DNA of 64,000 bases. Source: an uncultured Dysgonomonas sp. GTDB lineage: Bacteria; Bacteroidota; Bacteroidia; Bacteroidales; Dysgonomonadaceae. The notes beneath the pieces are model-generated. The model was not told the DNA's origin, searched no databases, and was given only the letters and a program-made list of their open reading frames with translations. Positions 39,161-58,240 of the stretch are shown here, piece by piece; position 1 is the stretch's first letter, and every line of letters begins with the position of its first letter. The position numbers and the translations under genes are program-made. The stretch covers positions 3,336 to 67,335 of the forward strand of contig NZ_CAKUOF010000017.1 of the NCBI RefSeq assembly GCF_934668725.1. Direction: 5' to 3'.

Positions 39161-39163
39161 ATC

Positions 39164-39667: not shown

Positions 39668-39704
39668 TTTATATATGTTAAGATCACAGACCTAATTTAA
39701 CTCG

Positions 39705-40259: not shown

Positions 40260-40268
40260 AGCGAGTAA

Positions 40269-41300
40269 TTATTTAAAAATCAAAACCAATACGCCCACCA
40301 ACAAAATATTGAATAATGCTAATGGAAACAATATTTTCCAGCCCAATCTCATTAACTGATCGTATCTGAAACGAGGAATAGTCCATCGTATCCACATATA
40401 AAAGAATATGAAAAATGATATTTTAACTAACAAAGATAAAAGAGCTAAGACATTTGCCATATTTACTCCCCAATTATCAGCAACCCACTCCATTCCAGGA
40501 TAATTATATCCTCCAAAAAATAGGATTGAAATCAGTGCTGATGAGAAGAACATACTTACATATTCGGAGAACATATAAAATCCCATCTTCATGGAAGAAA
40601 ATTCTGTATGGTGTCCGTTAACCAACTCCGACTCACATTCAGCCAAATCGAAAGGTGTACGGTTACACTCAGCAAAGGAACAAATCAAGAATATAAGTAA
40701 TGTTAGAGGTTGATAAAATGCATTCCAACCAAAACCGGCCTGTTGTTCAGTTATTTCACGAAGACTTAATGTTCCTGTCATCATTACCAACGCTATCAAT
40801 GACAAGCCCATTGCAACTTCATATGAAATCATCTGAGCTCCTGCACGTATACCACCTAGTAACGAGAACTTATTATTAGATGCCCATGCACCTATTACTA
40901 TACCATAGATAGCAGTAGACATAACAGCTACAACATAAAGAAGTGCAATGTTTACATCTGCTACCTGAGGAATATATTCTACACCTGCAATTACAAATTT
41001 ATTTGCCCAAGGAATAATAGCACTACCAAGAAGAGATACTATCATGGCGACAGCGGGTCCAACAGTAAATAAGATTTTATTAGGTGTATCGGGCATAAAC
41101 TCCTCTTTCGAGAAAAGCTTGGCTCCATCAGCCAATGGTTGTAAGATTCCAAATATCCCAGCACGGTTAGGACCATATCGGTCTTGTATAAAGCCTGCAA
41201 TTTTACGCTCAGCCAAAGTCGAATACAATGCAAAAAACATTGTAACGGCAAAGACTATTACAATAAGAATAAGCTTTTCTAATATAAATGAAATTTCCAT
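40269..41300 (-). CDS. nuoH: NADH-quinone oxidoreductase subunit H
   Basis: 343 aa, ND1-like. Confidence 0.85.
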   Translation of the reverse strand: MEISFILEKLILIVIVFAVTMFFALYSTLAERKIAGFIQDRYGPNRAGIFGILQPLADGAKLFSKEEFMPDTPNKILFTVGPAVAMIVSLLGSAIIPWANKFVIAGVEYIPQVADVNIALLYVVAVMSTAIYGIVIGAWASNNKFSLLGGIRAGAQMISYEVAMGLSLIALVMMTGTLSLREITEQQAGFGWNAFYQPLTLLIFLICSFAECNRTPFDLAECESELVNGHHTEFSSMKMGFYMFSEYVSMFFSSALISILFFGGYNYPGMEWVADNWGVNMANVLALLSLLVKISFFIFFYMWIRWTIPRFRYDQLMRLGWKILFPLALFNILLVGVLVLIFK

Positions 41301-41378
41301 ATTACTCTAAGTCGTTTCAACTATTTATTATCAGTTTTAAACTAGCTATAACCTTTATTGGCTATCCATAGTTTAACC

Positions 41379-42425
41379 TTATTGTTCTTTTACTTCTTTT
41401 ATTGCTTCTAATTCAACAGCATCATAAGGTATAGCAGGCATACTTATTTTCTTTTCGTCCTGCTCACGACCTTCTAAAATAAGTTCATCAGCATCTATAT
41501 GCACCTTTTTCAAGGGACGTGTATAATTATTTATATTAAGTACAGATGGTTTCTCAAATTTACGGGGACCTTCAATCACCCAGTCTTCTGCATTTTTATG
41601 GTGGAAACGGCAATCGTTACAAATAAACTCATCTACTTCATGATATACATCTTTACGACCTGTAACCCGCTGTACTTTATCTCCAAACATCCAAAGGGTT
41701 ACTTTCCCCGAACATTTAGGGCAATCACGATGTGCATTGTAGGGCTTATTAAACCATACGCGAGATTCAAAACGGAAAGTTTTATCAGTTAACGCTCCTA
41801 CAGGGCAAACATCAATCATATTTCCAGAGAAATCATTATCGATAGCTTTAGATATATAAGTTGATATCTGAGCATGGTCACCACGTCCTACAACACCATG
41901 TACACGTTCTGGTGTAAGTTGATCCGCCAATTTTACGCAGCGGTAACAAAGCACACAACGATTCATGTGTAGTTGTATGTATGGACCAATATCCTCTGGC
42001 TCAAATGTTCTTCTTGGCTCTTTATAGCGGGTTTTGAAGTTCTTGTTTCCATAAGCTAGATTTTGCAAATCACATTCACCTGCCTGATCACACACTGGAC
42101 AATCTAGAGGATGATTAATCAACAAAAATTCGCTTACAGCTCTACGAGCTTCTAAAGCTTTAGGAGATGTAGCACTTTTCACTTCCATTCCATCCTGAAC
42201 TGCTGTGACACATGATGGTTGTAATTTAGGCATAGGGCGAGGATCTTTTTCGCTCCCCTTACTTATCTCTACTAAACAACAACGACATTTGCCACCACAA
42301 TCTTTCAGTTTAGAATAGTAACACATGGTAGGAGGAACACTAGGTCCACCAATAGCACGTGCTGCTTCCAACACAGTAGTACCGGCTTCTACCTCTATTG
42401 TATGTCCATCTATTGTAATTTTCAT
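41379..42425 (-). CDS. nuoG: NADH-quinone oxidoreductase subunit G, short form (2Fe-2S + 4Fe-4S N-terminal module only)
   Basis: 348 aa. N-terminal 2Fe-2S ferredoxin fold (CYYSKLKDCGGKCRCCLVE) and His/Cys cluster motifs (HPLDCPVCDQAGECDLQ, CVLCYRCV). It lacks the molybdopterin-like C-terminal domain of long NuoG. Confidence 0.75.
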   Translation of the reverse strand: MKITIDGHTIEVEAGTTVLEAARAIGGPSVPPTMCYYSKLKDCGGKCRCCLVEISKGSEKDPRPMPKLQPSCVTAVQDGMEVKSATSPKALEARRAVSEFLLINHPLDCPVCDQAGECDLQNLAYGNKNFKTRYKEPRRTFEPEDIGPYIQLHMNRCVLCYRCVKLADQLTPERVHGVVGRGDHAQISTYISKAIDNDFSGNMIDVCPVGALTDKTFRFESRVWFNKPYNAHRDCPKCSGKVTLWMFGDKVQRVTGRKDVYHEVDEFICNDCRFHHKNAEDWVIEGPRKFEKPSVLNINNYTRPLKKVHIDADELILEGREQDEKKISMPAIPYDAVELEAIKEVKEQ

Positions 42426-42431
42426 AGGTAC

Positions 42432-43790
42432 TTATAATGAGAGTAAATGTCTAACCTTTTCCATAGGTTCATTTACAAAGTGATTTCTATTTTTTACTTT
42501 CTCAGGGAAACGTACATGATATTCAAATTCTTCACGGAAGTGGCGAATTGCAGCAGCTACAGGCCATGCAGCAGCATCACCCAACGGACAAATCGTATTT
42601 CCTTCTATTTTGCTCTGAATATCCCACAGAAGATCAATATCCTCTTGGCGTCCATGACCATTTTCAATACGTTCAAGAATTTTTTCCATCCATCCAGTAC
42701 CTTCACGACATGGTGAACATTGTCCGCAACTTTCGTGATGATAAAAGCGTGAAAAATTCCAAGTATTACGTACTATACATGCTGAATCATTATAGACAAT
42801 AAACCCTCCTGATCCCATAGATGATCCAGTGGTAAAACCACCGTCAGCTAAAGACTCATAAGTCATTAAGCGGTCTTCTCCGTTTGCAGTCTTAAATATA
42901 TAATTAGCAGGAAGAATAGGTACTGACGAACCTCCGGGAATGAATGCTTTTAAAGGGCGGTCATCAATCATACCACCTAAGTATTCATCAGAATTCATAA
43001 ATTCGTCTACAGTCATACCCATTTCGATCTCATATACTCCCGGATTTTTGATGTGTCCCGAAGCCGAAATCAATTTAGTTCCTGTCGATTTCCCTAAACC
43101 TATCTTTGCGTATTCATCTCCTCCATTGTTCACAATCCACGATACTGCAGAAATAGACTCTACATTATTTACAACAGTAGGCTCTGCCCATAATCCACTT
43201 ACGGCGGGGAATGGAGGTTTGATACGAGGGTTACCTCTTTTTCCTTCTAATGATTCAATCAGAGCAGTTTCTTCTCCGCAAATATATGCCCCTGCACCAC
43301 AGTGTACATATAGATCAAGATTGTAACCTGTTCCCAATATATTTTTACCTAACCAACCATTGGCATAGGCTTCTTTTATAGCTTTTTCTAGAATCTTGAA
43401 TACCCACATATATTCACCACGAATGTAGATATATGACAGATTAGCTTCCAATGCAAAACTTGATATAATAGCTCCCTCAATCAATAAGTGAGGGATGTAC
43501 TCCATCAAGAAACGATCTTTAAAAGTTCCGGGTTCCGACTCATCGGCATTTACGACCAAGTGGCGTGGTTTACCGGATCTCTTATCTATAAAACTCCACT
43601 TAAGCCCCATAGGAAATCCTGCTCCACCACGTCCTCTGATACCCGAAGTTTTAACATGTTCTACGATTTCATCAGGAGTCATTGTTTTAATAGCCTTTTC
43701 TACAGCTCTGTATCCTCCGTTTTTGCGATAAACTTCGTAATCCTTTATTCCGGGAATATCTATGTTCTCAAATAATATCTTTCTAGCCAT
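42432..43790 (-). CDS. nuoF: NADH-quinone oxidoreductase subunit F (NADH/FMN-binding, 4Fe-4S)
   Basis: 452 aa with a GRGGAGFPMGLKW FMN/NADH motif and a C-terminal CGQCSPCREG cluster. Confidence 0.85.
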   Translation of the reverse strand: MARKILFENIDIPGIKDYEVYRKNGGYRAVEKAIKTMTPDEIVEHVKTSGIRGRGGAGFPMGLKWSFIDKRSGKPRHLVVNADESEPGTFKDRFLMEYIPHLLIEGAIISSFALEANLSYIYIRGEYMWVFKILEKAIKEAYANGWLGKNILGTGYNLDLYVHCGAGAYICGEETALIESLEGKRGNPRIKPPFPAVSGLWAEPTVVNNVESISAVSWIVNNGGDEYAKIGLGKSTGTKLISASGHIKNPGVYEIEMGMTVDEFMNSDEYLGGMIDDRPLKAFIPGGSSVPILPANYIFKTANGEDRLMTYESLADGGFTTGSSMGSGGFIVYNDSACIVRNTWNFSRFYHHESCGQCSPCREGTGWMEKILERIENGHGRQEDIDLLWDIQSKIEGNTICPLGDAAAWPVAAAIRHFREEFEYHVRFPEKVKNRNHFVNEPMEKVRHLLSL

Positions 43791-43796
43791 CGCAAA

Positions 43797-44321
43797 TCAA
43801 TCTAGTTTTATTTTACCTTGTTTACAGTCTTCAACTAACGCATCGAACTTTTCTTCGGTTAGATGCTCGTGATAAAAATCACCTAATTGAAGCATAGGCC
43901 CATAACCACAGGCCCCTAAACACTCTACACCTACAACGCTAAACATACCATCATCGGTGGTTTCCCCCTCTTTAATACCTAACTTATTGCAGGCATAATC
44001 CAGCATATCTTCGCCTCCACGTATACTACAGCAGGATGTACGGCAAAATTCAAATGTATATTTACCTCTTGGATGCTGATTAAACATCGTATAGAATGTT
44101 ACCACTTCATATACTTCAATCGGTGTTACCTCCAGTATTTCAGCAACCTTATTCATCAAAGGAACACTTAACCAGTTCTCATGAGCATCTTGCACAGCAT
44201 GGAGTACAGGCAGCATAGCTGATTTTTTCTTATCAGCCGGATAGTGACTGATTAACTCATTGATTCGAGTCATCAGCTCCTCTGTCATATTTATTTTTTG
44301 ATTGTATTCTCTTTTTTCCAT
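43797..44321 (-). CDS. nuoE: NADH-quinone oxidoreductase subunit E (2Fe-2S)
   Basis: 174 aa with a thioredoxin-like 2Fe-2S motif (CRTSCC...CLGACGYGP). Its start overlaps the nuoD stop. Confidence 0.8.
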   Translation of the reverse strand: MEKREYNQKINMTEELMTRINELISHYPADKKKSAMLPVLHAVQDAHENWLSVPLMNKVAEILEVTPIEVYEVVTFYTMFNQHPRGKYTFEFCRTSCCSIRGGEDMLDYACNKLGIKEGETTDDGMFSVVGVECLGACGYGPMLQLGDFYHEHLTEEKFDALVEDCKQGKIKLD

Positions 44322-45556
44322 TACGCGTCTAATTCTCCGGCAATAACATTTATACTTGACAATGTAGCCACTGCATCCGAAAGCATTCCTCCTTTAATCA
44401 TCTCAGGGAATGCCTGATAATATATAAAACAAGGTCTGCGGAAATGCAAACGATATGGAGTACGCGAACCATCTGTAATTAAATACATACCCAATTCGCC
44501 ATTGGCCCCCTCTACTGCGTGATACACTTCTGCTACCGGAACCGGAATTTCTCCCATTACAATTTTAAAGTGATTTATTAGAGCTTCCATACTTGTATAC
44601 ACTTCATCCTTAGGAGGAAGGTAATAATCAGGAACATCTGCATGATAATCTCCTTCGGGTAGGTTGTCTTTTGCTTGACGAATTATTTTCAAGCTTTCTT
44701 TGACCTCTGCACAACGTACACAGAAACGATCATAAGTATCACCCGATTGGCCAACCGGTACTATAAAATCGAAATCTTCATACGAACTATATGGTTTTGC
44801 TACACGCACATCATAATCAATACCGGTTGCCCTCAGATTTGGACCTGTAAAACCATAATTCATTGCCTTCTCAGCAGAGATAGACCCTACATTTACTGTA
44901 CGATCCATAAATATACGGTTTCTCAGATAAGCTCTTTCGAGTTCGTCCCAAGCTTTAGGAAATCCTTCAAGGAATTCGTCCAGTTTTCGCCATGCAGCTT
45001 CGCTCCAATCTCTTTCAAAACCACCAATGCGTCCCATGTTTGTTGTTAAACGACCTCCACAAATCTCCTCATAGATTTCGTAAACTAACTCACGGTATTT
45101 CATTACGTATAAAAAGGGCGAATATGCACCTAAATCGACTCCCAAAATACCATTACATATCAAGTGATCGGTAATACGTGCCAATTCCATAACTATGACA
45201 CGCATATATTGTGCCCGCTTAGGAACTTCTACCCCCAAAGCTTTCTCGACTGTCATCCACCAGCACATATTATTGATCGGTGCAGAACAGTAGTTCATAC
45301 GGTCTGTCAACGGGGTGATCTGATAGAATGCTCTATTTTCAGCAATTTTCTCAAAAGCTCTGTGTATATAGCCTACAGTAGTATCGGCATCTAAAATACG
45401 CTCGCCATCCATAAGCAGTATATTCTGGAATACACCATGCGTAGAAGGATGCGTAGGTCCGAAATTTAAAACCGATAGCTCGCGTCCATCTTCGGGAGTA
45501 TGCTCTCTCAAGATTTTCGCAAAGCGATGTTCAGGGTGTAATAATAGGTCTGACAT
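44321..45556 (-). CDS. nuoD: NADH-quinone oxidoreductase subunit D
   Basis: 411 aa, NiFe-hydrogenase large-subunit-like (49 kDa). A separate gene, not a nuoCD fusion. Confidence 0.85.
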   Translation of the reverse strand: MSDLLLHPEHRFAKILREHTPEDGRELSVLNFGPTHPSTHGVFQNILLMDGERILDADTTVGYIHRAFEKIAENRAFYQITPLTDRMNYCSAPINNMCWWMTVEKALGVEVPKRAQYMRVIVMELARITDHLICNGILGVDLGAYSPFLYVMKYRELVYEIYEEICGGRLTTNMGRIGGFERDWSEAAWRKLDEFLEGFPKAWDELERAYLRNRIFMDRTVNVGSISAEKAMNYGFTGPNLRATGIDYDVRVAKPYSSYEDFDFIVPVGQSGDTYDRFCVRCAEVKESLKIIRQAKDNLPEGDYHADVPDYYLPPKDEVYTSMEALINHFKIVMGEIPVPVAEVYHAVEGANGELGMYLITDGSRTPYRLHFRRPCFIYYQAFPEMIKGGMLSDAVATLSSINVIAGELDA

Positions 45557-45654
45557 TTTCAGTCTTTTACTTATATTATTTCTATTGCCATATCCGTTAA
45601 CTATAACATTCTTTAGTGTATGGCACTAACCAAAGAAAAGGAAGGTCTAAAACC

Positions 45655-46185
45655 TTATTTGGGTTGATAGTTATTAGTTGTTCTACCAAAAAAACGGTCG
45701 TCCTTGTCACTACGTCCCGAATCCTCCATTGGATATTCTTTACGCATCGGAAACGATGTCATACCATCATCATTCAAAATACGTTTTAGATTGGGATGGC
45801 CGACAAACTTAATACCATAGAAGTCATAAGTCTCTCTTTCCATCCAATTGGCCGCAGCAAAAATATCGGTTATAGTATCAACCTCGACCTTTTCACCATT
45901 CAAAAAAGTTTTCACTCTGACTCGTACGTTATCCATCCAGTTATGCAACAGATATACAACTACAAACTGAGATTCAATACCATTATCCGGATAATGCACA
46001 CCACAAAGATCAGTCAAGAAGTTGAAACGTAAAATTTCGTTCTCTTTCATAAAACGAATTACATCTTTAATTCTAGAGGGAGTGGCTTCGAATGTTAGAA
46101 TATCTTGTTCCATTCTGAAATTCAACACATCTGCTCCAAATCTTTCTATTATTTTATTTTGAATATCGATAGTTTCCAATGACAT
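45655..46185 (-). CDS. nuoC: NADH-quinone oxidoreductase subunit C
   Basis: 176 aa, 30-kDa subunit. Confidence 0.8.
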   Translation of the reverse strand: MSLETIDIQNKIIERFGADVLNFRMEQDILTFEATPSRIKDVIRFMKENEILRFNFLTDLCGVHYPDNGIESQFVVVYLLHNWMDNVRVRVKTFLNGEKVEVDTITDIFAAANWMERETYDFYGIKFVGHPNLKRILNDDGMTSFPMRKEYPMEDSGRSDKDDRFFGRTTNNYQPK

Positions 46186-46216
46186 TATTATCCTATGTTA
46201 TAACAGGTCTCCGACC

Positions 46217-46768
46217 TTATTCAAATTTATATGATTCTAAAAGCTCCTGATATTTTTCAGACCCTCTACGATGTACTGATTCGCTTTTCACAATTTCTTG
46301 TAACTGCATTACACCATCCAATATTTGCTCAGGACGAGGAGGACAACCTGGCACATATACGTCAACAGGTATAATTTTATCAATACCCTGTAAAACTGAA
46401 TATGTGTCAAAGATTCCGCCAGAAGAAGCACATGCTCCTACTGCAATAACCCATTTCGGTTCTGCCATTTGCTCATATACATGACGTAAAATGGGAGCCA
46501 TCTTTTTAGAAATAGTCCCCATCACTAACAACATATCGGCTTGACGTGGAGAGAAGCTGTTACGCTCGGCTCCGAAACGCCCCATATCATAAGTAGATGC
46601 CATAGTTGCCATAAATTCGATACCACAACATGATGTTGCAAACGGCAAAGGCCACATCGAGTTAGCCCGAGCCAAACCAATTACATAATCAAATTTGGTT
46701 GCAAAAAAACCATTCCCGGTATACCCATCCGGTGCAGGTACTATATTTATTTTAGTTGATTCACTCAT
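46217..46768 (-). CDS. nuoB: NADH-quinone oxidoreductase subunit B (4Fe-4S N2)
   Basis: 183 aa with CCGIEFMA...GACASSGG...CPPRPE motifs. Confidence 0.85.
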
Positions 46769-46854
46769 GATTCATATTATTAAGTCAGAATAATAACTTT
46801 TGGATAATCTTACTTTAAGAAGCATTTACTCCAATTAAAGTAATATATCAAATC

Positions 46855-47223
46855 TTATTTTTCCCACTCCAAAGCTTTTCTTTTTACAATATAAAGATAT
46901 CCCACTAAAAGAAGAGCTATAAAGCCTCCCATCTTTAACAAACCAGCAAGACCTATTGTTTTAAAATTAACCGCCCAAGGATACATGAAAATAATTTCGA
47001 TATCGAAAAGGACAAAAAGAATAGCCACTAAGAAATATTTTACAGCAAAAGGTGTACGTGCATCACCTATTGAATCAATTCCACATTCAAAATTTTGATT
47101 CTTTTTAGATGATCGGTGCTTAGGGCCAAGGTAGTTTGACGCAAGTATTGTACCAAATACAAAAATAACAGAAAATGCCACTTGCATCAGGATCGGCACA
47201 AAATCATATAGATTCGATTCCAT
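46855..47223 (-). CDS. nuoA: NADH-quinone oxidoreductase subunit A
   Basis: 122 aa, 3 TM helices, ND3-like. Confidence 0.8.
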   Translation of the reverse strand: MESNLYDFVPILMQVAFSVIFVFGTILASNYLGPKHRSSKKNQNFECGIDSIGDARTPFAVKYFLVAILFVLFDIEIIFMYPWAVNFKTIGLAGLLKMGGFIALLLVGYLYIVKRKALEWEK

Positions 47224-47594: not shown

Positions 47595-48284
47595 TCAAAA
47601 AAAACGATATCCGATCGTAAAAAAGGCATTACGATTATGAATATCAACAGCTGCCTGAGAAATATTACTCAAGCCATATTCATATCCTAAATTAAATGTG
47701 AATAATTTAAATTCAGCACCAATTCCACCAATTAAACCGACCTCAAAACGCTTCAGTAAATCATCAGAAAAGGTATTATCCCTGTATTGCTCCGAAAAGT
47801 GCTTAAATTCACCTGAAGGTGAATTTAAAAATCCATCAAATCTGCTAGTCGTTTTTCCTCCAATACCATATGATAAATACCCCCCGACAGAAAAATTTAC
47901 CTTAAAGTCATCCGTTACCCCAACCTTATAACCCACCATCAAGGGCAATTGGAGGTATACCATATTCCAAGACGATTTTATAGTTCCATAATCGCCAAAA
48001 ATACCATCTCCATTGATATCTCCTTCTGTTATCAGATCTGATTTAAATCCTTTTGAATTTATTTCTAATCCAGAACGTAAGAAAAAATCTTTTTGAAGAT
48101 CGTATTCGGCAACAATCCCCAATTGATAACCAACTTTAGCATCAGTATCAATATATTCCATATCTACATTAGATAAGTTCATACCAACCTTGCCTCCGAG
48201 TGAAAATTTCGCCTCCTGAGAATACATATTAGCAACTAAAAGTAAACTAGTTACCGTTAGAAAAATCTTTTTGATAATGTTCAT
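47595..48284 (-). CDS. outer-membrane beta-barrel (OmpA/OmpW-like porin family) protein, last gene of the psp/flotillin operon
   Basis: Signal peptide (LLLVANMYSQ), amphipathic beta-strands, and a terminal aromatic residue (GYRFF). Begins 18 nt after the giant ATPase gene. Confidence 0.6.
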   Translation of the reverse strand: MNIIKKIFLTVTSLLLVANMYSQEAKFSLGGKVGMNLSNVDMEYIDTDAKVGYQLGIVAEYDLQKDFFLRSGLEINSKGFKSDLITEGDINGDGIFGDYGTIKSSWNMVYLQLPLMVGYKVGVTDDFKVNFSVGGYLSYGIGGKTTSRFDGFLNSPSGEFKHFSEQYRDNTFSDDLLKRFEVGLIGGIGAEFKLFTFNLGYEYGLSNISQAAVDIHNRNAFFTIGYRFF

Positions 48285-48302: not shown

Positions 48303-51300
48303 TTATAATTCAAGATTATTATTACCTGTGTATTTTAATACTTTCTTGATACCATCAAGATTATCATTAAACTGAGCCAGTTGAGCTATAACTTGCCCGA
48401 TTTCATTATCCTTACTTATTCCCGCTAATTTATTATTTTTATTAAACACTTCTTTAATGTGTTTCCATCTTTCGACTTCGGAAAAAGTAAGTTGCCCGGC
48501 AATTTCTTTCAACCTCAACAAATTCGCCTCACTGTCAGAAGTTAAGGTTTGTGCCTCGCTAATGTAATGAGATAGAATAAGCTCTTCAACCTCTTTCTGA
48601 TTCATTAGTGGAACAATTTGGCAAACCATTTTATTCATATTCCGATACGAACCTTGTAATTTAAAAGGAGGTTCTAGACGATAGGCATCTTGTGTGGCTG
48701 CACTTGATATATAATTTTGATTTACTTTCAGTACGATATCCCTTACCGTTAAGCTACTTTTGGCGACTGCGATGAAGTCATCGACATCTTGTTGTGTATA
48801 ATTACCTTCCAGATCGGGCATATCCTCACTCCTACTCTCGATATGTTCAATTAAATTATAAAAATCAGAGAAACTACGTCCGGCTATCTTTTGTAAATAC
48901 GGATTCTCTATCACTGCATTTTCAAGTAAACTTAACTTAAATAAATGATCAGATGTACCTATCACATCTCCTAGATTATATACATCTGCACGATTAGCTA
49001 ACATATCAGGGATCTGAAATTTATCGCCACTCTCGGTATAAGGATTACCCGCCATAATGACACAAAAACGCTTCCCTCTCAAATCATAAGTCTTACTTTC
49101 GCCTTCAAATATACCATCCATCTTACGCTGTCCATCAGCTAAAGATATAAACTTTTGTAAAAATTCTGAGCTGCAATGTTGTATATCGTCTAAATATAAC
49201 ATCACATTATCAGCCATTTCAAAGGCAAGGTTTATTTTCTTCAACTCCTCACGTGCCCCCGAGGTTTTCGCTTCTGCCGGATCAATAGATGTTATAGAAT
49301 GCCCAATGGTTGGTCCATTTATTTTCACAAAATTCAACCCCATCGTTTTAGCTAAATACTCCATAAGGGTAGTTTTTCCGTATCCGGGAGGAGAAACAAG
49401 CAACAACATTCCCATCCGCGAAGTACGCTTATTTTCGCCTGCCCCCCCTAGCTGTTTAGCAAGATTAGAACCGATCAAAGGTAGATATACTTCATTGATT
49501 AATTTATTTCTGACAAAAGAAGTCAAAACCTTAGGATTTAGCTCATGCACCTTTAATGTCTTTTTATAATCAGAGACCAATCTTTCTTTTAGCTCAGAAA
49601 AACGATTGTATGCAGGTACATTATCAAGAGTAAAAGATCTCATTTTTCTAATAAACTCATGATAATCTATCTCGTAATGACCATTCTCCATTATGGGATG
49701 GCTTCCTTTCAACTCATTAACATCTAAGATATCGGATGCAATCGTTAATGAATACGACTGGTTCTTCAACAACAACAGACAAGCTGTTTCCTCTACATAC
49801 TTATTATACAGAGAATAATCATCAGACAATTCGACAAAAGATTTTAGCCAGTTCTGAACTAAATAGAATCTGTCTACAGGATTAAATGATTCATTACGAA
49901 CATCTTCTTCAAAATTATTCGATAATTTATTTTTATCTAAATATTCGACAAAAAATTTCCTCAAATTTTCAGATTGCTCGCTATAGCTTAAGGACATCGA
50001 ATCTGAAAATTCTTCAAATAAATAATTGGCAACTTGCTTTTCGAAGCCGATAGGTACGGTAAAATATATATTCCACGATTTAAACAGACCTATAATCCGA
50101 TCTATCACATATTGATAATTTGTTGAGCCGGGGAACGCCTTCAACACTATGTTAGCCGAAGTTATTAGCTTTGACAGATGTTCTTTCTCCTCCGCTTTCA
50201 TCATATACCAGAAAAGTTGTGCTGCAACCCTCAAGCGGGGAGGGTAAGCCAAAACTCCTAACTGATAATGAACAGATTCCAAACAACGGAAAATATGTAT
50301 AGCATCATAATCGTGTACTCCTTTTAAATACGATTCTGAATAGCTTTGTTCCACTCTTTTAGCTATAAAATCATTCAGATCAAAATCTTTAGATTTCTGC
50401 CTCTCCAGAAATGCCAAATACGCCAAATACTCGGATCTATATACCTTCGAATTTTCGGAAACAATTTCTTGCTCCCACAAATCTTTATGTTTATAGATTT
50501 CGTTATCTTTCAGCTCATAATAGAAGCTGGTTCCGGTCAAATGATAGAAAAGCCTATCCTCTTTACGCACAACTGTCAAATCAAGCGATTGCCTGTTTAC
50601 TGCAAACTTATAACTGCCTAATGATATTATATTTTCGCCATCAACAAACAGCTCGTTTTTGTCTTTTAGTATACGCAGCGAATCTTCTAGGGAGGTCTTT
50701 AGGCTGTTTTCCAGATTTTCAGCCTTTGAGACATCTCCAAGCTCTTTCAATTCTTCAATCAGTTTGTGGATTTTGTCGATCATCAGATCTGTAGAAAAGA
50801 ATGCTTGTATTTCTTCTTTTGTTTTAAAAGATTGCGCTTTATTCTCTACATTCTTTAAAATGCGAAGACCGATTTGCTCCAATGCTGATGTTCGCTTATT
50901 TATCTGCTCAATCAATTGGGCTTTCTTCCCATCAAAAGCTTTTATCAGTTCATTCCTTTTATCTGAAATTTTAATAATAAACTCATCAAAATCGGCAAAC
51001 TTACTTTCCAATTCTTCAACCTGTACGCTTACTTTAGTAAAATATTCGTCACATTTTTCCGGAGAAGTAGCCAAGTCCAGAAAGTTGACAATACTTTGCT
51101 CCAACAAAGTTAATTGGGCACGAAAATCAGCCACCGATTCTTTGTTCTTCAACGAATCGATCTGTCTTTTGAGTTGTGCCCGAACTTCATTCAGTGAAGA
51201 AAATATGACAGATATCTTTTCCACAATACGGGTAGCCTGTGTAGTATCATCAATCTTTAGGCTATTCAGAATATCAATCAGGAGTTCCAGTTCTGACGAA

Positions 51301-53168
51301 ATCGATTTACAATTAGCATCTATTTTATTGGCATCAATAACCTTTGAGACCAACTGAACCTGCTCTTTCTCTGCACGAACTTTTTCCTCATAAGGAAACA
51401 AAGCCTCATCACGAAGAAGAAATTCTACCGTTCTATCCGATAGTCTTCCATTAGTGGCAGCTAATTGCTCTTTAAGATCATTGACATTATTTAAGTCAAT
51501 GTATTTGACATTAGCCAATTCAATAACTTCTCCTTGCAACCTGCGTGTTTGGGCTAATGCTTTAACTAATTTATCTAGTGTATCAAATTTTGCATTCTTG
51601 ATACTAAACAACAAGCTTTCTACTTTCTCTTGAGTAGTAATCAAAACAGTCAACGAATGTCGCTTTTGCTCCTGAACCTTTTCAAATTCATCAATAGCTG
51701 TATTAGCTATTTCTTTTATCTGAACAAGAGGTTCGGCTATCGAATATATCTCCTTGTTGGATGCCCAGAAAAAAGCATCTACAATATCGTTTGACTTCTT
51801 TACAATATCGCTGTACAGTCCTTCATAAGAGTCTTCCTTATTTATAAGATAAATCACCTCCTGACACTCTGCCATTGCTTTCACAATATCCTTATTGCCT
51901 ATTTTATAAAGTAAATTATCGGTCTTCTCGATATTTTCAATTAGCTCTCTCTGATAGGGTGTTTTCCAGATTTGCACCTGATGATGTTTTGTCGCTTCAT
52001 TTTCGGAACGGAAATATATTAACGAACCATCCTTAAAAAAGGTAAATCCATTACATATAATTGGAGTTTCAACTTGCTGCCTAATTATATTATACGACAT
52101 CAAGACATAAATATTCCGTTCGTTTTGATAGAAAATAAACAAATAGTCTTCGCCATTAGGAGATGGTATTTTTCGAATAAATTCAAGATCTGTCAATTCA
52201 CTCTCAAAAACTTTGTATTCTCCATTCTGCAAATAATATCCATTGGGAAATATCACTCCATGATTATCTGGCAATAATACCCCAATATCATTTAATGCTT
52301 TTATATTGTGTACTTCTTTGGTTCGAGTATTAAATACAAAGGCTCTAAAGTCTTCCTGATAGGGTTTTATTCGAATTAGAATCAGGTTACCCAAATCTGT
52401 ATAATAATACTCAGCATCATCCAATTGCTGATCTTTGTTCTCTACAGCTTCCGAATATATACCTTTTCCTGTTTGTGTATTATCCTCTATCTTAAAAGTA
52501 ATATCACCGCCCATGGCTTCAATAAAGACTTTATCCTTAATAGAAATATGTGGATAAACCCCTAAACGACGATCTTCCAGCGTGGTCTTAATCCATTTGA
52601 ATTCATGCTGAGGAGCTTTAGTCACTTCATGAATACTCCTGTCATCCTGATATATGAGTTTATTTCCTTTAATCAGCCATTTAAAAGCTTTAGCGTCTGC
52701 TACTGTTTTTCCGGTTTGAAAAATCATATACAGATAATTCTCCGTTCTTCTGTATCTGGAGAAAATAGAATCGCGATAGTATTTATAGAGATTATTGTAA
52801 TCGTTAATAAAATCAGGATCGGCAATTAGATCCAAGGGCTGCGGTATAAACTGATTGTTTTCAAATAAATATATACTAAAAACATCACTCAACTGAATAT
52901 CGGAGCGCAATCCGAAATGAACGTTATAGCCGAAAATACATAGATTATCAAGAGCCATAATACCTCTTGATACACAATTATTATCGGTACTGATACGCTG
53001 ATTGGCAATCAAAGAAAAATCAGTTGTATTAAATACTTCCTTGCGGGCTTCGTTTAGCTGATTCAGGCGCTTTTGAAGTTCTTCGCGCTGAGTAAGTAAA
53101 CGTTTTCTTATTATCTCATATGTTCCTGCATCAAGTGTCTCAGCAGATCTATCCTCTGTGTCTTGCAT
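48303..53168 (-). CDS. giant (1621 aa) coiled-coil protein with C-terminal classic-type AAA+ ATPase domain; function unknown
   Basis: The N-terminal ~420 aa are a globular domain of unknown fold. Residues ~430-1000 are heptad-rich E/K/L coiled coil. Walker A is LLLVSPPGYGKTTLMEYLAK, Walker B is VMLYLDDIQH, and VIMAGNPY...IPDMLANRADVYNL is a second-region-of-homology-like segment (residues ~1280-1440). There is no signal peptide and no TM segment. Confidence 0.7.
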   Translation of the reverse strand: MQDTEDRSAETLDAGTYEIIRKRLLTQREELQKRLNQLNEARKEVFNTTDFSLIANQRISTDNNCVSRGIMALDNLCIFGYNVHFGLRSDIQLSDVFSIYLFENNQFIPQPLDLIADPDFINDYNNLYKYYRDSIFSRYRRTENYLYMIFQTGKTVADAKAFKWLIKGNKLIYQDDRSIHEVTKAPQHEFKWIKTTLEDRRLGVYPHISIKDKVFIEAMGGDITFKIEDNTQTGKGIYSEAVENKDQQLDDAEYYYTDLGNLILIRIKPYQEDFRAFVFNTRTKEVHNIKALNDIGVLLPDNHGVIFPNGYYLQNGEYKVFESELTDLEFIRKIPSPNGEDYLFIFYQNERNIYVLMSYNIIRQQVETPIICNGFTFFKDGSLIYFRSENEATKHHQVQIWKTPYQRELIENIEKTDNLLYKIGNKDIVKAMAECQEVIYLINKEDSYEGLYSDIVKKSNDIVDAFFWASNKEIYSIAEPLVQIKEIANTAIDEFEKVQEQKRHSLTVLITTQEKVESLLFSIKNAKFDTLDKLVKALAQTRRLQGEVIELANVKYIDLNNVNDLKEQLAATNGRLSDRTVEFLLRDEALFPYEEKVRAEKEQVQLVSKVIDANKIDANCKSISSELELLIDILNSLKIDDTTQATRIVEKISVIFSSLNEVRAQLKRQIDSLKNKESVADFRAQLTLLEQSIVNFLDLATSPEKCDEYFTKVSVQVEELESKFADFDEFIIKISDKRNELIKAFDGKKAQLIEQINKRTSALEQIGLRILKNVENKAQSFKTKEEIQAFFSTDLMIDKIHKLIEELKELGDVSKAENLENSLKTSLEDSLRILKDKNELFVDGENIISLGSYKFAVNRQSLDLTVVRKEDRLFYHLTGTSFYYELKDNEIYKHKDLWEQEIVSENSKVYRSEYLAYLAFLERQKSKDFDLNDFIAKRVEQSYSESYLKGVHDYDAIHIFRCLESVHYQLGVLAYPPRLRVAAQLFWYMMKAEEKEHLSKLITSANIVLKAFPGSTNYQYVIDRIIGLFKSWNIYFTVPIGFEKQVANYLFEEFSDSMSLSYSEQSENLRKFFVEYLDKNKLSNNFEEDVRNESFNPVDRFYLVQNWLKSFVELSDDYSLYNKYVEETACLLLLKNQSYSLTIASDILDVNELKGSHPIMENGHYEIDYHEFIRKMRSFTLDNVPAYNRFSELKERLVSDYKKTLKVHELNPKVLTSFVRNKLINEVYLPLIGSNLAKQLGGAGENKRTSRMGMLLLVSPPGYGKTTLMEYLAKTMGLNFVKINGPTIGHSITSIDPAEAKTSGAREELKKINLAFEMADNVMLYLDDIQHCSSEFLQKFISLADGQRKMDGIFEGESKTYDLRGKRFCVIMAGNPYTESGDKFQIPDMLANRADVYNLGDVIGTSDHLFKLSLLENAVIENPYLQKIAGRSFSDFYNLIEHIESRSEDMPDLEGNYTQQDVDDFIAVAKSSLTVRDIVLKVNQNYISSAATQDAYRLEPPFKLQGSYRNMNKMVCQIVPLMNQKEVEELILSHYISEAQTLTSDSEANLLRLKEIAGQLTFSEVERWKHIKEVFNKNNKLAGISKDNEIGQVIAQLAQFNDNLDGIKKVLKYTGNNNLEL

Positions 53169-53260: not shown

Positions 53261-55447
53261 TTATGATAACTTCTTATTGGATATTCCTAATGATTTTGAC
53301 ATATTTAGCAGACTGCTCAAAAATCCTTTGTCTTCACTCTCGGTGCTTTGACTTTGCATTTTTAAGATAAGACCTGCAATACTCAGATTCTTAATATCGT
53401 CTGTTGATATATTGAATTTATTCACATAATATCTGATCCTGTCAAACAATTCCCCTTCGGAGCCATTTCCAATTAATGCTTTCTTTATTTGCTGGATATT
53501 TTCACTCTTATTCACCAAATTATCAAATCCTTTAGCATTAGAAACTTGTTTTACAATATTTTCGAAGAACATGGTCTCTCCACCAACAATATCGATATCA
53601 GCAGATTTTAATGCTTCAGACAACACTTGAGCTTGCGCATCAGCAATATCTTTCTGGATACTGATTTGTGCCATTTCAACATCTTTCTCTTTCTGTAGTT
53701 GTAATTTGAATTCTTCATGCTCTTTCCCTGCACCATCCAGTTTTTTCATTGCTGTAGCTTTTTCGTCTATACCTGTAGCTTCGGCTAGAGCTTTTTCTTT
53801 CGAAACTTCAGCTTCCATCAAACCTTCTTTACGTTTAGCTTCTGCTTTCGCTTCTATTCCTGCAGCTTCAGCTATCGATGTTTTCTCTATAATGCTGGCT
53901 TGTCCGGTAGCAGAAGCAAATGCTTTTTCTCTTGTGATTTCAGCATCTACCAATCCATCTTTTCGCTTCGCCTCAGCTCTTGTTTCGATGCTGTAAGCTT
54001 CGGCTTTTGCTTTCTTCTCAATAATAGAAGCTTCTACAATACCTTGTTTCTCTTCTGCATCCGCTTTGGCTTTCATGATTTCTGCTTCCGCTAAACCATA
54101 AGTAGCATCTTCTTTTGCTTGAGCTTCGGCTAAAATTTTCCTTGCTTCGGCTTGTTTTGTTGACGCTTCTTTCTTAGCATCTGCATCTATCAACAATTGT
54201 TTAGCCCTTTCTTCTGCCGCTTTTTTATCAGCCTCAGCTCCTTTTACGGTTTTAATCAACTTCTCTTCAGCTTCCTGAGCAGCCATAGTTATACCTACTT
54301 GCTTCTGACGGTCTACCTCCCTAAAAGCTTCAATATCTTTGATATTTTGTTTTTCCTCAACTACACCTTTTTCGAGCTGGACACGCTCACGAATGACATC
54401 CTGAATATTTTTCTTCTCAACTTCCAGAACACGCTCTTTTTCAATTTGAGCCAAAGTCACTATTCGTTCTCTTTCCGTTTGTTCTAATGCACGGTCTTTT
54501 TCTACACGCTCCTTTTCGATTGCCTCTGTTCTTTCTTTATTTTTCTCAGCTATAATTATCTGGCGACGTTTATTTTCTTCCTGTATAGCTAAACTCTCAT
54601 CCGTAGATATTCTTACAGTTTCAGATTTCAATCGCTCTTCTTCTCTTACTTTCTGAATCTCGGCTTCTTCACGAGATTTCACATTATCTATCTCTCTCTT
54701 TTGTTTCTCTTCTTTTTCAGCTAATTGTCTTTCCAGTTCGAGAATAGCTTCACGTGCTTCAACATTTTGCTTTTTTATAACTTTTTCCTCTTCCCTGCGA
54801 ATCAAATTCGCATTGATATTCTGAGCAGCGGTCAACTCGGTAATCTTGCGGATACCTTCCGAATCGAGAATATTCTCAGCACTCATATATTTCATTTCTG
54901 TTTGCTCCAGATAATCTATTGCACAGTCATCCAAAATATAGCCATTCAAATCGGTACCTATAATATTTATGATTTCGTCTCTAAACTCTCTACGGGCTTC
55001 GTATAGTTCTATAAAATCGAACTTTTTACCTACTGTCTTTAAGGCTTCCGAAAACTTAGCTTCAAATATATTTTTAAGCGTTTCTGAATCACTGGCACGC
55101 TCACAACCCAATGTTTGAGCGACATTGATGACATCATTTACTGATTTATTGACTCTAACAAAGAAGGCAACTTTAATATCGGCACGAATATTGTCTTTAC
55201 AAATTAACCCGTCATGCTGCATTCTTTCTATTTGAAGTTTTTTGACTGAAATATCCATTATTTCCATTTTATGGAAAATAGGAACTACATACATTCCTTT
55301 ATTAAAGGCAACATTAGTTCCACCGACACCGGTACGAACGATAGCCTTACCTTGAGGTATTTTTTTATAAAATGACGCTAAAATGCCTAAAAGCACAAGC
55401 AGAATAAAAAGGACAGAGCCTACAAGAATGATAATAATGTGTTCCAT
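53261..55447 (-). CDS. flotillin (SPFH/Band-7) family protein, YqiK/FloT-like
   Basis: N-terminal TM (IIIILVGSVLFILLVLLGILA) and an SPFH domain (KAIVRTGVGG...DIKVAFFVRV). Long C-terminal EA-rich coiled coil with an internal tandem repeat (EAKAEAKRKEGL.. appears twice). Confidence 0.8.
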   Translation of the reverse strand: MEHIIIILVGSVLFILLVLLGILASFYKKIPQGKAIVRTGVGGTNVAFNKGMYVVPIFHKMEIMDISVKKLQIERMQHDGLICKDNIRADIKVAFFVRVNKSVNDVINVAQTLGCERASDSETLKNIFEAKFSEALKTVGKKFDFIELYEARREFRDEIINIIGTDLNGYILDDCAIDYLEQTEMKYMSAENILDSEGIRKITELTAAQNINANLIRREEEKVIKKQNVEAREAILELERQLAEKEEKQKREIDNVKSREEAEIQKVREEERLKSETVRISTDESLAIQEENKRRQIIIAEKNKERTEAIEKERVEKDRALEQTERERIVTLAQIEKERVLEVEKKNIQDVIRERVQLEKGVVEEKQNIKDIEAFREVDRQKQVGITMAAQEAEEKLIKTVKGAEADKKAAEERAKQLLIDADAKKEASTKQAEARKILAEAQAKEDATYGLAEAEIMKAKADAEEKQGIVEASIIEKKAKAEAYSIETRAEAKRKDGLVDAEITREKAFASATGQASIIEKTSIAEAAGIEAKAEAKRKEGLMEAEVSKEKALAEATGIDEKATAMKKLDGAGKEHEEFKLQLQKEKDVEMAQISIQKDIADAQAQVLSEALKSADIDIVGGETMFFENIVKQVSNAKGFDNLVNKSENIQQIKKALIGNGSEGELFDRIRYYVNKFNISTDDIKNLSIAGLILKMQSQSTESEDKGFLSSLLNMSKSLGISNKKLS

Positions 55448-55512: not shown

Positions 55513-56211
55513 TTAATAAGTATCTTTAATTACATAGTATATGTGTTTATCAGATACTTCTTCGGTGATTATTACCGTTTCTCCATATTTAATAGATTCT
55601 CCATTAAGACTGATAATATTTAATTTAATCGGGTTTCTATTTATCAGAAATTCAGCAGTGCCCACTTTCTGACCCTCTATATTAGAAAGCATTTTACCTG
55701 AGCATCCAAAAAAGTCTGTAGCTTCTTCTCCCTGATAATTTATCTCTTTAAAAAGTTTTGCCATAGGAGTGGTTGCTACCTTTGTCAAGAAAAATCCTAT
55801 AATAACTAAAGGTAGTAATACAAAAACAGACTTCCGCCCCAAATGATCAACATGAAAGAAATGTGTTGTAATGAGTGACCCGATCCATAATAGAAAAATA
55901 AAAGTGGATAATACCAGCATAAAAGGCACTTGTCCTACATTTATAAATGACAAACATTTTAACAGTATTCCCTGAGGAACTTTCTCTACTGCAATATGAC
56001 TATCGGTATCCACATCCGCTACATCAATTTCTATATCAGGAACTTCAACATCCACATCTACTTCCGGAGAAAAATCAATATTCAAATCAATATCATCAAA
56101 ACCAATGCCTCCGATCAGTACAAATAACCAATAAATAGCTATCACTAACATCAACACGGTCATGACCCCGTTAGGAAGTGGATGAAATAAAGTATGTAAA
56201 AAGTCTGTCAT
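55513..56211 (-). CDS. NfeD/YqiJ-like membrane protein (OB-fold C-terminus), flotillin partner
   Basis: 232 aa with 3-4 TM helices and an acidic DVDVEVPDIEIDVADVDTD tract. The C-terminal beta-rich segment (GTAEFLINRNPIKLNIISLNGESIKYGETVIITEE) resembles an NfeD-like OB-fold. The yqiJ-yqiK / nfeD-floT pairing is an established pattern. Confidence 0.55.
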   Translation of the reverse strand: MTDFLHTLFHPLPNGVMTVLMLVIAIYWLFVLIGGIGFDDIDLNIDFSPEVDVDVEVPDIEIDVADVDTDSHIAVEKVPQGILLKCLSFINVGQVPFMLVLSTFIFLLWIGSLITTHFFHVDHLGRKSVFVLLPLVIIGFFLTKVATTPMAKLFKEINYQGEEATDFFGCSGKMLSNIEGQKVGTAEFLINRNPIKLNIISLNGESIKYGETVIITEEVSDKHIYYVIKDTY

Positions 56212-56229: not shown

Positions 56230-56931
56230 TTATTGCATTCCCAATTTTCGCTTAATCTCATTAAGCTCCAAATCTACATTTTGCTCATTCGCTCCAATCG
56301 CTATATCTATTTCGTCATCAACAGAAATATTACATTTATTCAATGCAGCATAAGCCTGGGCCAATGCGTCCTCTTCCGCAATCTTTTCTTTTATTCGCTC
56401 CAACATATTCAAAGTACTATCACTATCTATTTGAGCCATTTGCCTATTCACTTCTTGAGTAACTTTACTTATACGGATTTTCGCCTTTAGAGTTTTCAGC
56501 TCATTTTCCCACTTGGTAATATTAAACTTAAGTATTTCAATATTTTTCTGAATATCCAATGCTATATTTTCATGCTCAATACGCTGCACATCCAGTTCAT
56601 TTATTTCTGAAATCAATTGCTCTTTGCGAAGCAAAGCTTCCTTTGCCAATCTTTCTGCTTGAGCTATATCAATGTCTCCATTATGAGCTTTTGAAATTAA
56701 GAGAACAGCCTTATTCCCATAGTCCTGAGCTTCTGATCTCTTTTTCTCTTTTTCGTTTTTAGCACGGATGACCATTGCTTTAACCTTCGCTAAAGATTCT
56801 AAAGTTAGAGTCAGATTCTCTTTCATTTCCACAATCCCGGTCTCCGTAATTTGTACAGGATCTTCAACGCCATCTAATACCTCATGTATCTCAGCCTGAC
56901 CAATTCTAAATAGTCTTTTGAATATATTCAT
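56230..56931 (-). CDS. pspA: PspA/IM30/Vipp1 family protein (bacterial ESCRT-III-like)
   Basis: 233 aa, all-helical coiled coil. The N-terminus (MNIFKRLFRIGQAEIHEVLDGVEDPVQ) aligns with E. coli PspA ([27 protein letters not shown]). Confidence 0.8.
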   Translation of the reverse strand: MNIFKRLFRIGQAEIHEVLDGVEDPVQITETGIVEMKENLTLTLESLAKVKAMVIRAKNEKEKKRSEAQDYGNKAVLLISKAHNGDIDIAQAERLAKEALLRKEQLISEINELDVQRIEHENIALDIQKNIEILKFNITKWENELKTLKAKIRISKVTQEVNRQMAQIDSDSTLNMLERIKEKIAEEDALAQAYAALNKCNISVDDEIDIAIGANEQNVDLELNEIKRKLGMQ

Positions 56932-56935
56932 AATC

Positions 56936-57334
56936 TTATTTTTTAGCGAACTCTATAATTTGCTCGTAATACTCACTCAGCAATAACCCCAAAGAATTTA
57001 AGGCTCCTTCAAACTCATTTATACCCATATTTTCTATTTGCATGGTGTATCTGAATATGACCTTCGTTCCATCTTCATTCAAAACAAATCCTCCATGTAT
57101 AATGTCCCTATTCTTAATTAATAAAGATTTCAGAATTTCTTTATCATCATTCTGCAATGTGAAAATAAATTGCTCTATAATAAGAATAGGAGAAGCCACT
57201 CCAATAATCAAATTCTTGATTCCATCGGTTTCACTTTCTATACAGAATACGCCTTTAGTTTCATCGTGATACGTAATCGAATAGCCTAGCTTCAAGATAT
57301 ATGTTTCTATTTTTTTTAAATACATATCATTCAT
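56936..57334 (-). CDS. YbjN-domain protein (T3SS-chaperone/CesT-like fold), first gene of the operon
   Basis: 132 aa, acidic, alpha/beta. Family membership comes from recalled similarity to YbjN-like 'putative sensory transduction regulator' proteins. Its stop lies 4 nt from the pspA start. Confidence 0.45.
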   Translation of the reverse strand: MNDMYLKKIETYILKLGYSITYHDETKGVFCIESETDGIKNLIIGVASPILIIEQFIFTLQNDDKEILKSLLIKNRDIIHGGFVLNEDGTKVIFRYTMQIENMGINEFEGALNSLGLLLSEYYEQIIEFAKK

Positions 57335-57480: not shown

Positions 57481-58155
57481 ATGAGTAAAGTTGGAAAAAA
57501 TATAAAAAAAATAAGAAATGTAAAGGCTTTGAGTCAACAGGCATTTGCTGATTTATTTCAACTGACAAGAGGAAATATATCTTCATATGAAGAGTTTAGA
57601 GCCGAACCCAAAATAGAAATCATCGTGAACATTGCTAAATATTTTGGCATCCCGTTAAATGACTTTATTTTGAAAGAATTATCGGTCAACGAGCTCCTGC
57701 ATTACAATACGGAACTGGTATTAGAAACCGAGAAACTAAAGAAAACCCACCACTTTATAGAGGTTCCTTATGTATCTTCGTTAGATATTGTTGATTATGA
57801 AGCACATTACAATGATGAGAACTTCATACACAATCTTCCCCATATTAGTATTCCGAGCAGTGCCAAGTCTAAATTGATAGCTATTGAGATACAAGATTCG
57901 GAATCGCTGCCTTTAGGTTTTAACTTTAAGAATGGAGATATTCTAATTTATGAGCAAGTAATAAGAGAAAATATTCATAGAATAGAAAACAAACTCGGAT
58001 TAATGGTCGATACTGATGGTATAAAATCAGGTGTATATAAAGAACATGAAGGCAAAATATTTTTATCGCTTAATGAATGGGTAAAGTATCCTTTTGAAAT
58101 AGACTCACCTGCTCATTATTGGCTGCTCAGGGCATTATTTACTCAAATTATATAA
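57481..58155 (+). CDS. XRE-family HTH transcriptional regulator with C-terminal LexA/S24-peptidase-like beta domain
   Basis: N-terminal HTH_XRE (IKKIRNVKALSQQAFADLFQLTRGNISSYE). The C-terminal region (LIAIEIQDSESLPLGFNFKNGDILIYEQV) resembles an S24 fold. Transcribed divergently from the ybjN-pspA operon with a 146-bp shared AT-rich spacer; TATATTTG at 57412-57419 fits a -7 box. Confidence 0.55.
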   Translation: MSKVGKNIKKIRNVKALSQQAFADLFQLTRGNISSYEEFRAEPKIEIIVNIAKYFGIPLNDFILKELSVNELLHYNTELVLETEKLKKTHHFIEVPYVSSLDIVDYEAHYNDENFIHNLPHISIPSSAKSKLIAIEIQDSESLPLGFNFKNGDILIYEQVIRENIHRIENKLGLMVDTDGIKSGVYKEHEGKIFLSLNEWVKYPFEIDSPAHYWLLRALFTQII

Positions 58156-58240
58156 TAGAAAAGAACAATCCAAATGGATTGTTCTTTTGTTATAATCAAT
58201 TATAAATCGATGTTTACTAAAGGAACAGAAAACTCAAATA

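Follow-up and report, generated by a model that had tools for sequence, protein, structure and literature searches.

An operon class encoding PspA, a CesT/Tir protein, a band-7 protein, YqiJ and an AAA+ ATPase was described by Ravi et al. (2024; PMC11237479), who relied on comparative genomics only, proposed a role in membrane dynamics and also noted abbreviated flotillin-YqiJ-AAA+ operons. Popp et al. (2022) found band-7/FloT, NfeD and helix-turn-helix (HTH) regulators in PspA operons and reconstructed Psp networks in Acidobacteriota and Bacteroidota; a further study assigns to an SPFH protein of B. subtilis the link between PspA and the membrane (PMC8581546). In Pseudomonas aeruginosa, the genes bacABCDEF constitute the 'biofilm-associated cluster', within which bacE shares a transcript with bacA-D and bacF; its product, BacE, was detected through 13 peptides and is up 8.9-fold in a bacA mutant (PMC10948618). 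Here we analyze a stretch of 64,000 nucleotides from an uncultured Dysgonomonas sp. (contig NZ_CAKUOF010000017.1, positions 3,336 to 67,335; hereafter the window), in which a giant open reading frame (ORF) occupies positions 48303-53168 of the minus strand. We estimate at about one half the probability that its product, the giant protein, is an ATP-driven remodeler of the co-encoded flotillin assembly at the inner membrane, perhaps acting on PspA polymers too.

The P. aeruginosa homolog P0411 contains, at residue 1703, the sequence IKVMDR encoded by the published reverse transcription PCR primer for PA14_16190, and aligns end to end with the giant protein of the window at 36% identity, indicating that BacE (PA14_16190) is its ortholog. 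Both have the same three Pfam domains (DUF3686, DUF7902 and AAA), colinear over the full length, although the Bacteroidota proteins are around 125 aa shorter, mainly at the C-terminus. The giant protein is a member of a catalogued and computationally described family and is not new as a family; what is new here is a sharper partnership with flotillin, an AAA+ module of the MoxR and not the Vps4 class, and a rod of fixed length. Literature searches retrieved no paper under the name DUF3686, no functional study of the giant protein under PA3728/PA14_16190 or the BAC system, and no work linking a MoxR-class ATPase to SPFH proteins or PspA; a survey of SPFH proteins in P. aeruginosa does not mention the giant protein.

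The flotillin-giant gene pair and its operon

The giant ORF extends from ATG to stop over 1621 codons, for a product of around 188 kDa (window ORF scan). It is the last of five same-strand genes, in the order CesT-like, PspA, YqiJ-like, flotillin-like and giant, which lie next to a divergent regulator gene:

48303..53168, minus strand: giant ORF, 1621 aa, no transmembrane (TM) segment (ORF scan, TM scan, homologs)
53261..55447, minus strand: flotillin/SPFH-like protein, 728 aa, with one N-terminal TM segment and a long E/K/A-rich helical region (weak NCBIfam FloT match, orthologs)
55513..56211, minus strand: three-TM YqiJ/YuaF-like (NfeD-type) membrane protein, 232 aa (weak YqiJ_N match, E = 1e-3; three hydrophobic segments)
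56230..56931, minus strand: PspA/IM30 (bacterial ESCRT-III), 233 aa (Pfam, E = 6e-34)
56936..57334, minus strand: CesT/Tir-like chaperone, 132 aa, first gene of the operon (CesT_Tir_1, E = 2e-47)
57481..58155, plus strand: XRE-family HTH regulator, 224 aa, divergent (Pfam HTH_19 and HTH_3)

To describe synteny and gene integrity we used a set of 80 related Bacteroidota loci, in which neighbors were counted by tblastn. The flotillin-like gene was found in 73 of the 80 loci and the YqiJ-like gene in 71, with PspA in 58 and the CesT-like and XRE regulator genes in 57 each; all seven loci without a flotillin gene end just upstream of the giant gene. The downstream outer-membrane protein gene and nuoA were each found in a single locus, and this lack of conservation indicates that the operon ends with the giant gene. 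Among distant loci, a flotillin ortholog lies directly upstream of the giant gene in seven out of seven (Pseudomonas, Colwellia, Myxococcota, Acidobacteriota and three metagenomic contigs), often separated by only a few bases, and the same arrangement is found on two plasmids, pQBR103 and a linear one from Streptomyces, where NCBI labels the upstream product as SPFH-domain or flotillin-family. Myroides and a few other loci contain only the YqiJ-like, flotillin-like and giant genes, and PspA is not in the operon in Myroides, Colwellia, Streptomyces and other distant loci. The invariant core is thus the flotillin-giant pair, usually accompanied by the YqiJ-like gene, with PspA and CesT as a frequent add-on module with which the XRE regulator co-occurs. 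All conserved neighbors of the giant gene encode membrane or membrane-associated proteins, and the operons of Proteobacteria add rhomboid, PLD or polyamine genes. The initial annotation of this DNA, made from the sequence alone, had treated the giant ORF as a stand-alone object; instead, it closes a conserved membrane-stress operon of five genes.

The flotillin-like protein contains a TM segment at residues 1-31 followed by KK, and with this single N-terminal anchor its bulk would therefore lie in the cytoplasm. Its orthologs carry Pfam Band_7 and are annotated as SPFH or flotillin family. It is more conserved than the giant protein, both in the closest genomes (96% versus 90% identity) and across phyla (39-51% versus 33-40%).

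All five components of the class of Ravi et al. (PMC11237479) are present here in one same-strand cluster, with a weak flotillin assignment in the window; our results differ from theirs in that flotillin, not PspA, is the invariant neighbor. The bac operon of P. aeruginosa has a similar composition (CesT/YjfI-like, PspA, a small membrane protein, flotillin-like and giant), but its first gene encodes DUF2170 instead of CesT_Tir_1, a sigma-54 promoter has been proposed in Pseudomonas where the window has the divergent XRE HTH regulator, and Pseudomonas has rhomboid and PLD genes downstream of the giant gene that are missing from the window operon. In one Pseudomonas locus (L083), a 79-aa ORF without Pfam match (9676-9915) sits between the flotillin-like and giant genes, and downstream of the latter are genes for a rhomboid protease and a PLD-family protein. 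On pQBR103 (locus L091; NC_009444.1 85112-97641), the flotillin-giant pair is part of one same-strand string that also includes PspA and, as polyamine-type genes, rhomboid, DUF2491, DUF350, DUF1190 and glutathionylspermidine synthase, so that two PspA operon classes of Ravi et al. are combined there.

The giant ORF is a real gene and not an assembly or annotation artifact. A search across 5.8 billion proteins returned 3932 homologs at E < 1e-5, the best 120 of which are mostly 1590-1630 aa long and 63-100% identical, and the N-terminal domain as a query retrieved 690 clusters out of 1.84 billion cluster representatives, with full-length members of 1600-2036 aa. Homologs that are colinear over their full length of 1600-1900 aa are present in Bacteroidota, in Pseudomonadota (Gammaproteobacteria), and in Myxococcota, Acidobacteriota, Actinomycetota and Deinococcus. 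The closest genome matches are Dysgonomonas species, at 90% identity, and identity across Bacteroidota families is 60-75%, with fixed synteny. The initial annotation had allowed that frameshifts in close relatives might expose the ORF as spurious, but the gene is intact in the 80 related genomes wherever the contig permits, with 1596-1669 codons from stop to stop and a single exception. The reading as an ORF artifact or assembly error was consequently dropped, on the strength of the full-length homologs and of the uninterrupted copies in related genomes. The exception is Dysgonomonas capnocytophagoides DSM 22835 (L016, 10001-14839), whose copy has an in-frame TAG at codon 500 (DEFDKV, stop, TQKK) and is otherwise colinear, with 74% identity; this TAG could represent a pseudogene, a sequencing error or read-through.

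A TM scan found no hydrophobic or TM segment in the giant protein, which should therefore be either soluble or peripheral; we consider it a putative soluble cytoplasmic protein.

Domain architecture and class of the ATPase

We modeled the giant protein with AlphaFold2 in two halves that overlap, using for each an alignment of 49 sequences from several phyla; the mean predicted local distance difference test (pLDDT) score was 83.6 in the first half (residues 1-860) and 81.7 in the second (residues 841-1621). Together with Pfam matches, the models bear out the multi-domain organization initially annotated, in which a globular N-domain and a long stretch of helices precede the AAA+ module at the C-terminus, and allow the following parts to be distinguished from the N- to the C-terminus:

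53031..53147, minus strand: N-terminal long helix, residues 8-46 (AlphaFold2, DSSP)
51963..53015, minus strand: predicted beta-propeller, residues 52-402, core of DUF3686 (Pfam, AlphaFold2, Foldseek)
50649..51914, minus strand: spectrin-like helical rod, residues 419-840
51159-51407, minus strand: Pfam DUF7902, residues 588-670, inside the rod (87.8 bits, Pfam)
50514..50630, minus strand: small beta unit, residues 847-885 (AlphaFold2, DSSP)
49770..50438, minus strand: all-helical domain of unknown type, residues 911-1133 (AlphaFold2)
49449..49754, minus strand: beta strands followed by a long helix that links to the AAA+ module, residues 1139-1240 (AlphaFold2, DSSP)
48975..49415, minus strand: AAA+ alpha/beta core, residues 1252-1398
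49368-49394, minus strand: Walker A, SPPGYGKTT, residues 1259-1267
49176-49205, minus strand: Walker B, VMLYLDDIQH, residues 1322-1331
49035-49058, minus strand: sensor-1 Asn, motif MAGNPYT
48984-49010, minus strand: Arg finger, motif PDMLANRAD
48324..48974, minus strand: AAA+ lid and C-terminal helical region, residues 1399-1615
48636-48656, minus strand: QGSYRNM, invariant

The AAA+ core is the most conserved region of the giant protein (3.3-3.9 bits), and the motifs SPPGYGKTT, LYLDDIQH, MAGNPYT, PDMLANRAD and QGSYRNM are invariant across phyla; the module is likely to be catalytically active. Pfam AAA (36.8 bits, above its cut-off) and AAA_5 (34 bits versus a cut-off of 22) match over residues 1255-1378, approximately. 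The module belongs to the MoxR class and is closest to CbbQ/NorQ, not to Vps4, an assignment that we add to the description by Ravi et al. (PMC11237479). The closest solved structures are those of MoxR-class members, and the giant protein resembles CbbQ, NorQ and RavA in its AAA_5 match and perhaps in a predicted pre-sensor-1 beta-hairpin. In the model, DSSP shows a hairpin between alpha3 and beta4 (residues 1349-1362), whereas the segment from beta2 to alpha2 (about residues 1285-1302) is a loop and a short helix, with no hairpin. Searches of PDB sequences with the giant protein, both as a single sequence and as a profile, gave no matches beyond the Walker A stretch, in p97, Rix7 and RuvB.

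CbbQ, NorQ and RavA are 250-500 aa long, whereas the giant protein carries around 1250 extra N-terminal residues and, unlike them, has Asp-Asp in place of Asp-Glu in Walker B, no Pfam AAA_3 match and no VWA/MIDAS partner gene. Relatives of the MoxR/CbbQ/NorQ class include midasin and dynein, each with six concatenated AAA+ modules per chain, whereas the giant protein has one (residues 1252-1398 plus the lid); a dynein-like reading was rejected for this reason. Vps4 and the classic AAA clade are characterized by an MIT domain and an aromatic pore loop 1, both absent from the giant protein, whose AAA+ module is of a different clade. It likewise lacks the protease domain and the TM anchor of FtsH, and is a member of neither the FtsH nor the Vps4 family. 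An SMC/Rad50-type organization was also discarded, because the protein has one contiguous C-terminal AAA+ module and an N-terminal propeller, and not an ABC head split by an antiparallel coiled coil, and because no match to SMC, Rad50 or ABC proteins turned up. A separate bpMoxR-VWA pair occurs in one distant locus (L088), around 4 kb downstream and on the opposite strand.

The N-domain, which the initial annotation left as unknown, corresponds to the catalogued Pfam DUF3686, matched at residues 30-467 over its full 448-position profile (E = 8e-167; 555.7 bits versus a cut-off of 25). The two motifs quoted in that annotation are both present, GFTFFKDGSLIYFRSENEA at residues 374-392 and VQIWKTPYQ at residues 398-406. 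Residues 52-402 are modeled with around 27 beta strands (pLDDT about 85-92) and match WD40 and prolyl-oligopeptidase-type propellers in Foldseek (E = 1.8e-6 to 1e-3), with hits to DCAF1 (E = 1.8e-6), IFT-A subunits, Vps18 and EED. We regard the N-domain as probably a seven-bladed beta-propeller.

In the model, the rod comprises around 10 helices of 15-58 residues, separated by short loops and packed in spectrin-like bundles, and a fold search matched this middle segment to spectrin repeats. There is not a single indel in residues 478-840 across the 49 aligned sequences, which are 31-96% identical, and conservation over residues 630-870 is around 3 bits, equal to that of the propeller. As modeled, the rod is a precisely folded module of fixed length and not a generic coiled-coil spacer. 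The continuous coiled coil of around 600 aa initially annotated was rejected, since the AlphaFold2 models give around 420 aa (residues 419-840) of helical bundles, an extent with which a crude heptad-periodicity scan agrees, and the alignment is free of indels, with the beta unit and the helical domain (residues 847-1240) preceding the AAA+ module. Ravi et al. (PMC11237479) also described a 'coiled coil', which here is the fixed-length spectrin-like rod and comes after the propeller, not before it. The helical domain at residues 911-1133 is modeled with pLDDT mostly above 90, and no part of the giant protein is less conserved than the C-terminal half of this domain; Pfam searches gave nothing beyond noise for residues 841-1250 and the C-terminal region.

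A putative remodeler of membrane scaffolds and its alternatives

Flotillin/SPFH domes and PspA/ESCRT-III polymers have a central place in how bacteria organize and repair their membranes, and the giant family is the only AAA+ ATPase found here that is strictly co-encoded with flotillin and frequently with PspA, in at least five phyla. In the remodeler that we propose, six AAA+ modules would come together in a ring, like those of CbbQ, NorQ and RavA, to form a particle of around 1.1 MDa with six spectrin-like arms, each tipped by a propeller. On the cytoplasmic side of the inner membrane, the arms might grip the flotillin assembly or else PspA polymers that have been recruited to it, and ATP hydrolysis would then open, disassemble or recycle the scaffold during envelope stress. 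In RavA, a helical arm ends in a binding domain that docks onto a protein cage, and the binding of LdcI cages by these arms would be one parallel, together with the action of Vps4 on ESCRT-III and the association of the SPFH cages HflK/C with FtsH; the giant gene follows the functional logic of the last two systems, as an AAA+ ATPase gene genetically coupled to an ESCRT-III homolog (PspA) and to an SPFH cage protein. The initial annotation compared the giant protein with motors or tethers more than with enzymes, and an AAA+ module of a class related to midasin and dynein would fit a mechanical remodeler.

Several observations weigh against this remodeler. The substrate would be assigned from gene neighborhood alone. 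The flotillin-like protein of the window has no Pfam Band_7 match, even at E <= 10, nor did it match anything in Pfam or PDB sequence searches, and its SPFH identity relies on the weak FloT match, on its orthologs and on published analysis; current SPFH models seem to miss this subfamily. Walker B has Asp-Asp where Asp-Glu is usual, and hydrolysis kinetics may be unusual. MoxR ATPases normally have a VWA/MIDAS partner, and none was found in the giant protein or among the operon genes, in the window and in the distant loci. Finally, the fold-back of the helical region in a monomer model could in principle misrepresent an intermolecular coiled coil.

The evidence can also be read with PspA polymers as the primary substrate, disassembled or recycled by a functional analog of Vps4 for which flotillin would be only a membrane platform. 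PspA and the CesT-like gene open the operon here, and PspA occurs in 58 of the 80 related loci, in Pseudomonas and on pQBR103; besides, ESCRT-III elsewhere needs an AAA+ disassemblase, none of which is known in bacteria (PMC7619361), and the same parallel was drawn by Ravi et al. (PMC11237479). We nevertheless consider this unlikely, because the operons of Myroides, Colwellia, Streptomyces and other distant loci lack PspA while flotillin is never missing, and the giant protein has neither an MIT domain (Pfam, AlphaFold2) nor an aromatic pore-loop motif between beta2 and alpha2. A mainly structural role, in which the rod and propeller head would link flotillin domains to another structure and the AAA+ ring would serve as an oligomerization hub or switch in a tether, scaffold or motor, draws on the fixed length of the spectrin-like rod, on the Foldseek matches of the propeller and helical region to the coat and tether subunits of IFT-A and Vps18, and on the kinship of the AAA+ module with dynein and midasin. 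These long Foldseek matches have low TM-scores (0.1-0.17), though, and there is a single AAA+ module per chain, with no equivalent of a stalk or microtubule-binding region; the fully conserved catalytic motifs favor turnover over a static role, and the gene context points to no second structure, all of which makes such a role improbable.

The two remaining explanations fare much worse. Large AAA+ proteins with propellers do occur in defense systems, a copy of the giant gene is carried by megaplasmid pQBR103, and PADLOC returned a weak match to mad8 in the P-loop region (E = 4e-4), as might be expected if the operon were an anti-phage defense or mobile conflict system. Yet that P-loop-level match was the sole one for the five operon proteins and not a convincing one, the regulator matches generic HTH models, and the gene evolves like a core gene, with 60-75% identity across Bacteroidota families, fixed synteny and a base composition equal to that of the surrounding window; only 13 of 72,556 plasmid records contain it, all of them large replicons. 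A defense role is accordingly very unlikely. Hardly credible, in turn, is a DNA repair ATPase, for which there are names only: 'ATPase involved in DNA repair' for PF12458 and 'DNA repair ATPase' for homologs, as used by NCBI, UniRef and Pfam. Neither a DNA-binding or nuclease domain nor an SMC/Rad50-type ABC head was found (Pfam, NCBIfam, AlphaFold2), similarity to RuvB is limited to the Walker A stretch, the conserved neighbors are all membrane or membrane-associated, and a literature search by the name of the Pfam family gave no papers. This label, unsupported here, is spread over thousands of entries, and its correction matters for annotation.

A broader extension of the proposed remodeler, which we put forward tentatively and consider possible, is that the giant protein may be the missing ATP-dependent engine of bacterial membrane-scaffold dynamics, working on flotillin domes, PspA polymers or both, built as a six-armed machine on a MoxR chassis and evolved independently of Vps4. 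If true, bacteria would have a Vps4-like activity, which current reviews call absent; in the words of a 2025 review, a Vps4-like ATPase appears absent in bacteria (PMC7619361). The strict co-encoding with flotillin and frequent co-encoding with PspA across phyla make the question of scaffold disassembly in bacteria directly testable, and bacE of P. aeruginosa offers a tractable model, as the bac operon already has biofilm and virulence phenotypes.

Flanking genes and antisense reading frames

An outer-membrane beta-barrel gene (47595-48284, minus strand) starts 18 nt past the stop codon of the giant gene and is present in one of the 80 related loci; a 96%-identical relative (L081) has an LtrA-family gene in its place. 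Farther downstream, a run of same-strand ORFs (38840-47223, minus strand) includes nuoA, nuoB and nuoC, confirmed by Pfam at 45655-47223, and we infer from L081, which has the full cluster, that the rest of the run is probably the complex I (nuo) cluster; a single locus of the 80 shows nuo linked to the operon.

On the other side of the operon, the C-terminal 150 residues of the XRE regulator have no Pfam match and no TM segment, and a terminator-like hairpin (58159-58188) separates its gene from the upstream L-serine dehydratase gene. A scan for sigma-70 promoters gave 45 sites versus 47.8 in shuffled sequences, with no excess, and the inverted repeats in the AT-rich intergenic region between regulator and operon were uninformative.

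The giant gene contains 11 antisense stop-free runs of at least 60 codons. The longest corresponds to ORF 50659-51357, which encodes 232 aa from its start codon and extends over 247 codons from stop to stop (run at 50614-51354). The number of runs is ordinary, as 33% of synonymous-codon shuffles reach as many, and the longest is mildly long (143 ± 39 codons in shuffles, 3% of which reach 247). Among 77 orthologous genes, the longest antisense run shifts in position and frame, with a median of 143 codons, and the long run of the window is not kept in two 90%-identical relatives. Four antisense ORFs were compared with Pfam, with no match. Antisense genes were thus rejected on account of the missing Pfam matches, the unconserved position and frame, and a number of runs as predicted by codon content, and the antisense ORFs are by-products of that content, much as the initial annotation had it when it called them artifacts. 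Much longer antisense runs occur in a few orthologs: a termite-gut Tannerella metagenome-assembled genome (MAG) has an antisense strand open over 1319 codons in the codon-aligned frame (L019, 9337-14178), and two Bacteroides MAGs (L011 and L012) have runs of 574 and 505 codons, far over the median of 143; these very long runs presumably reflect codon usage.

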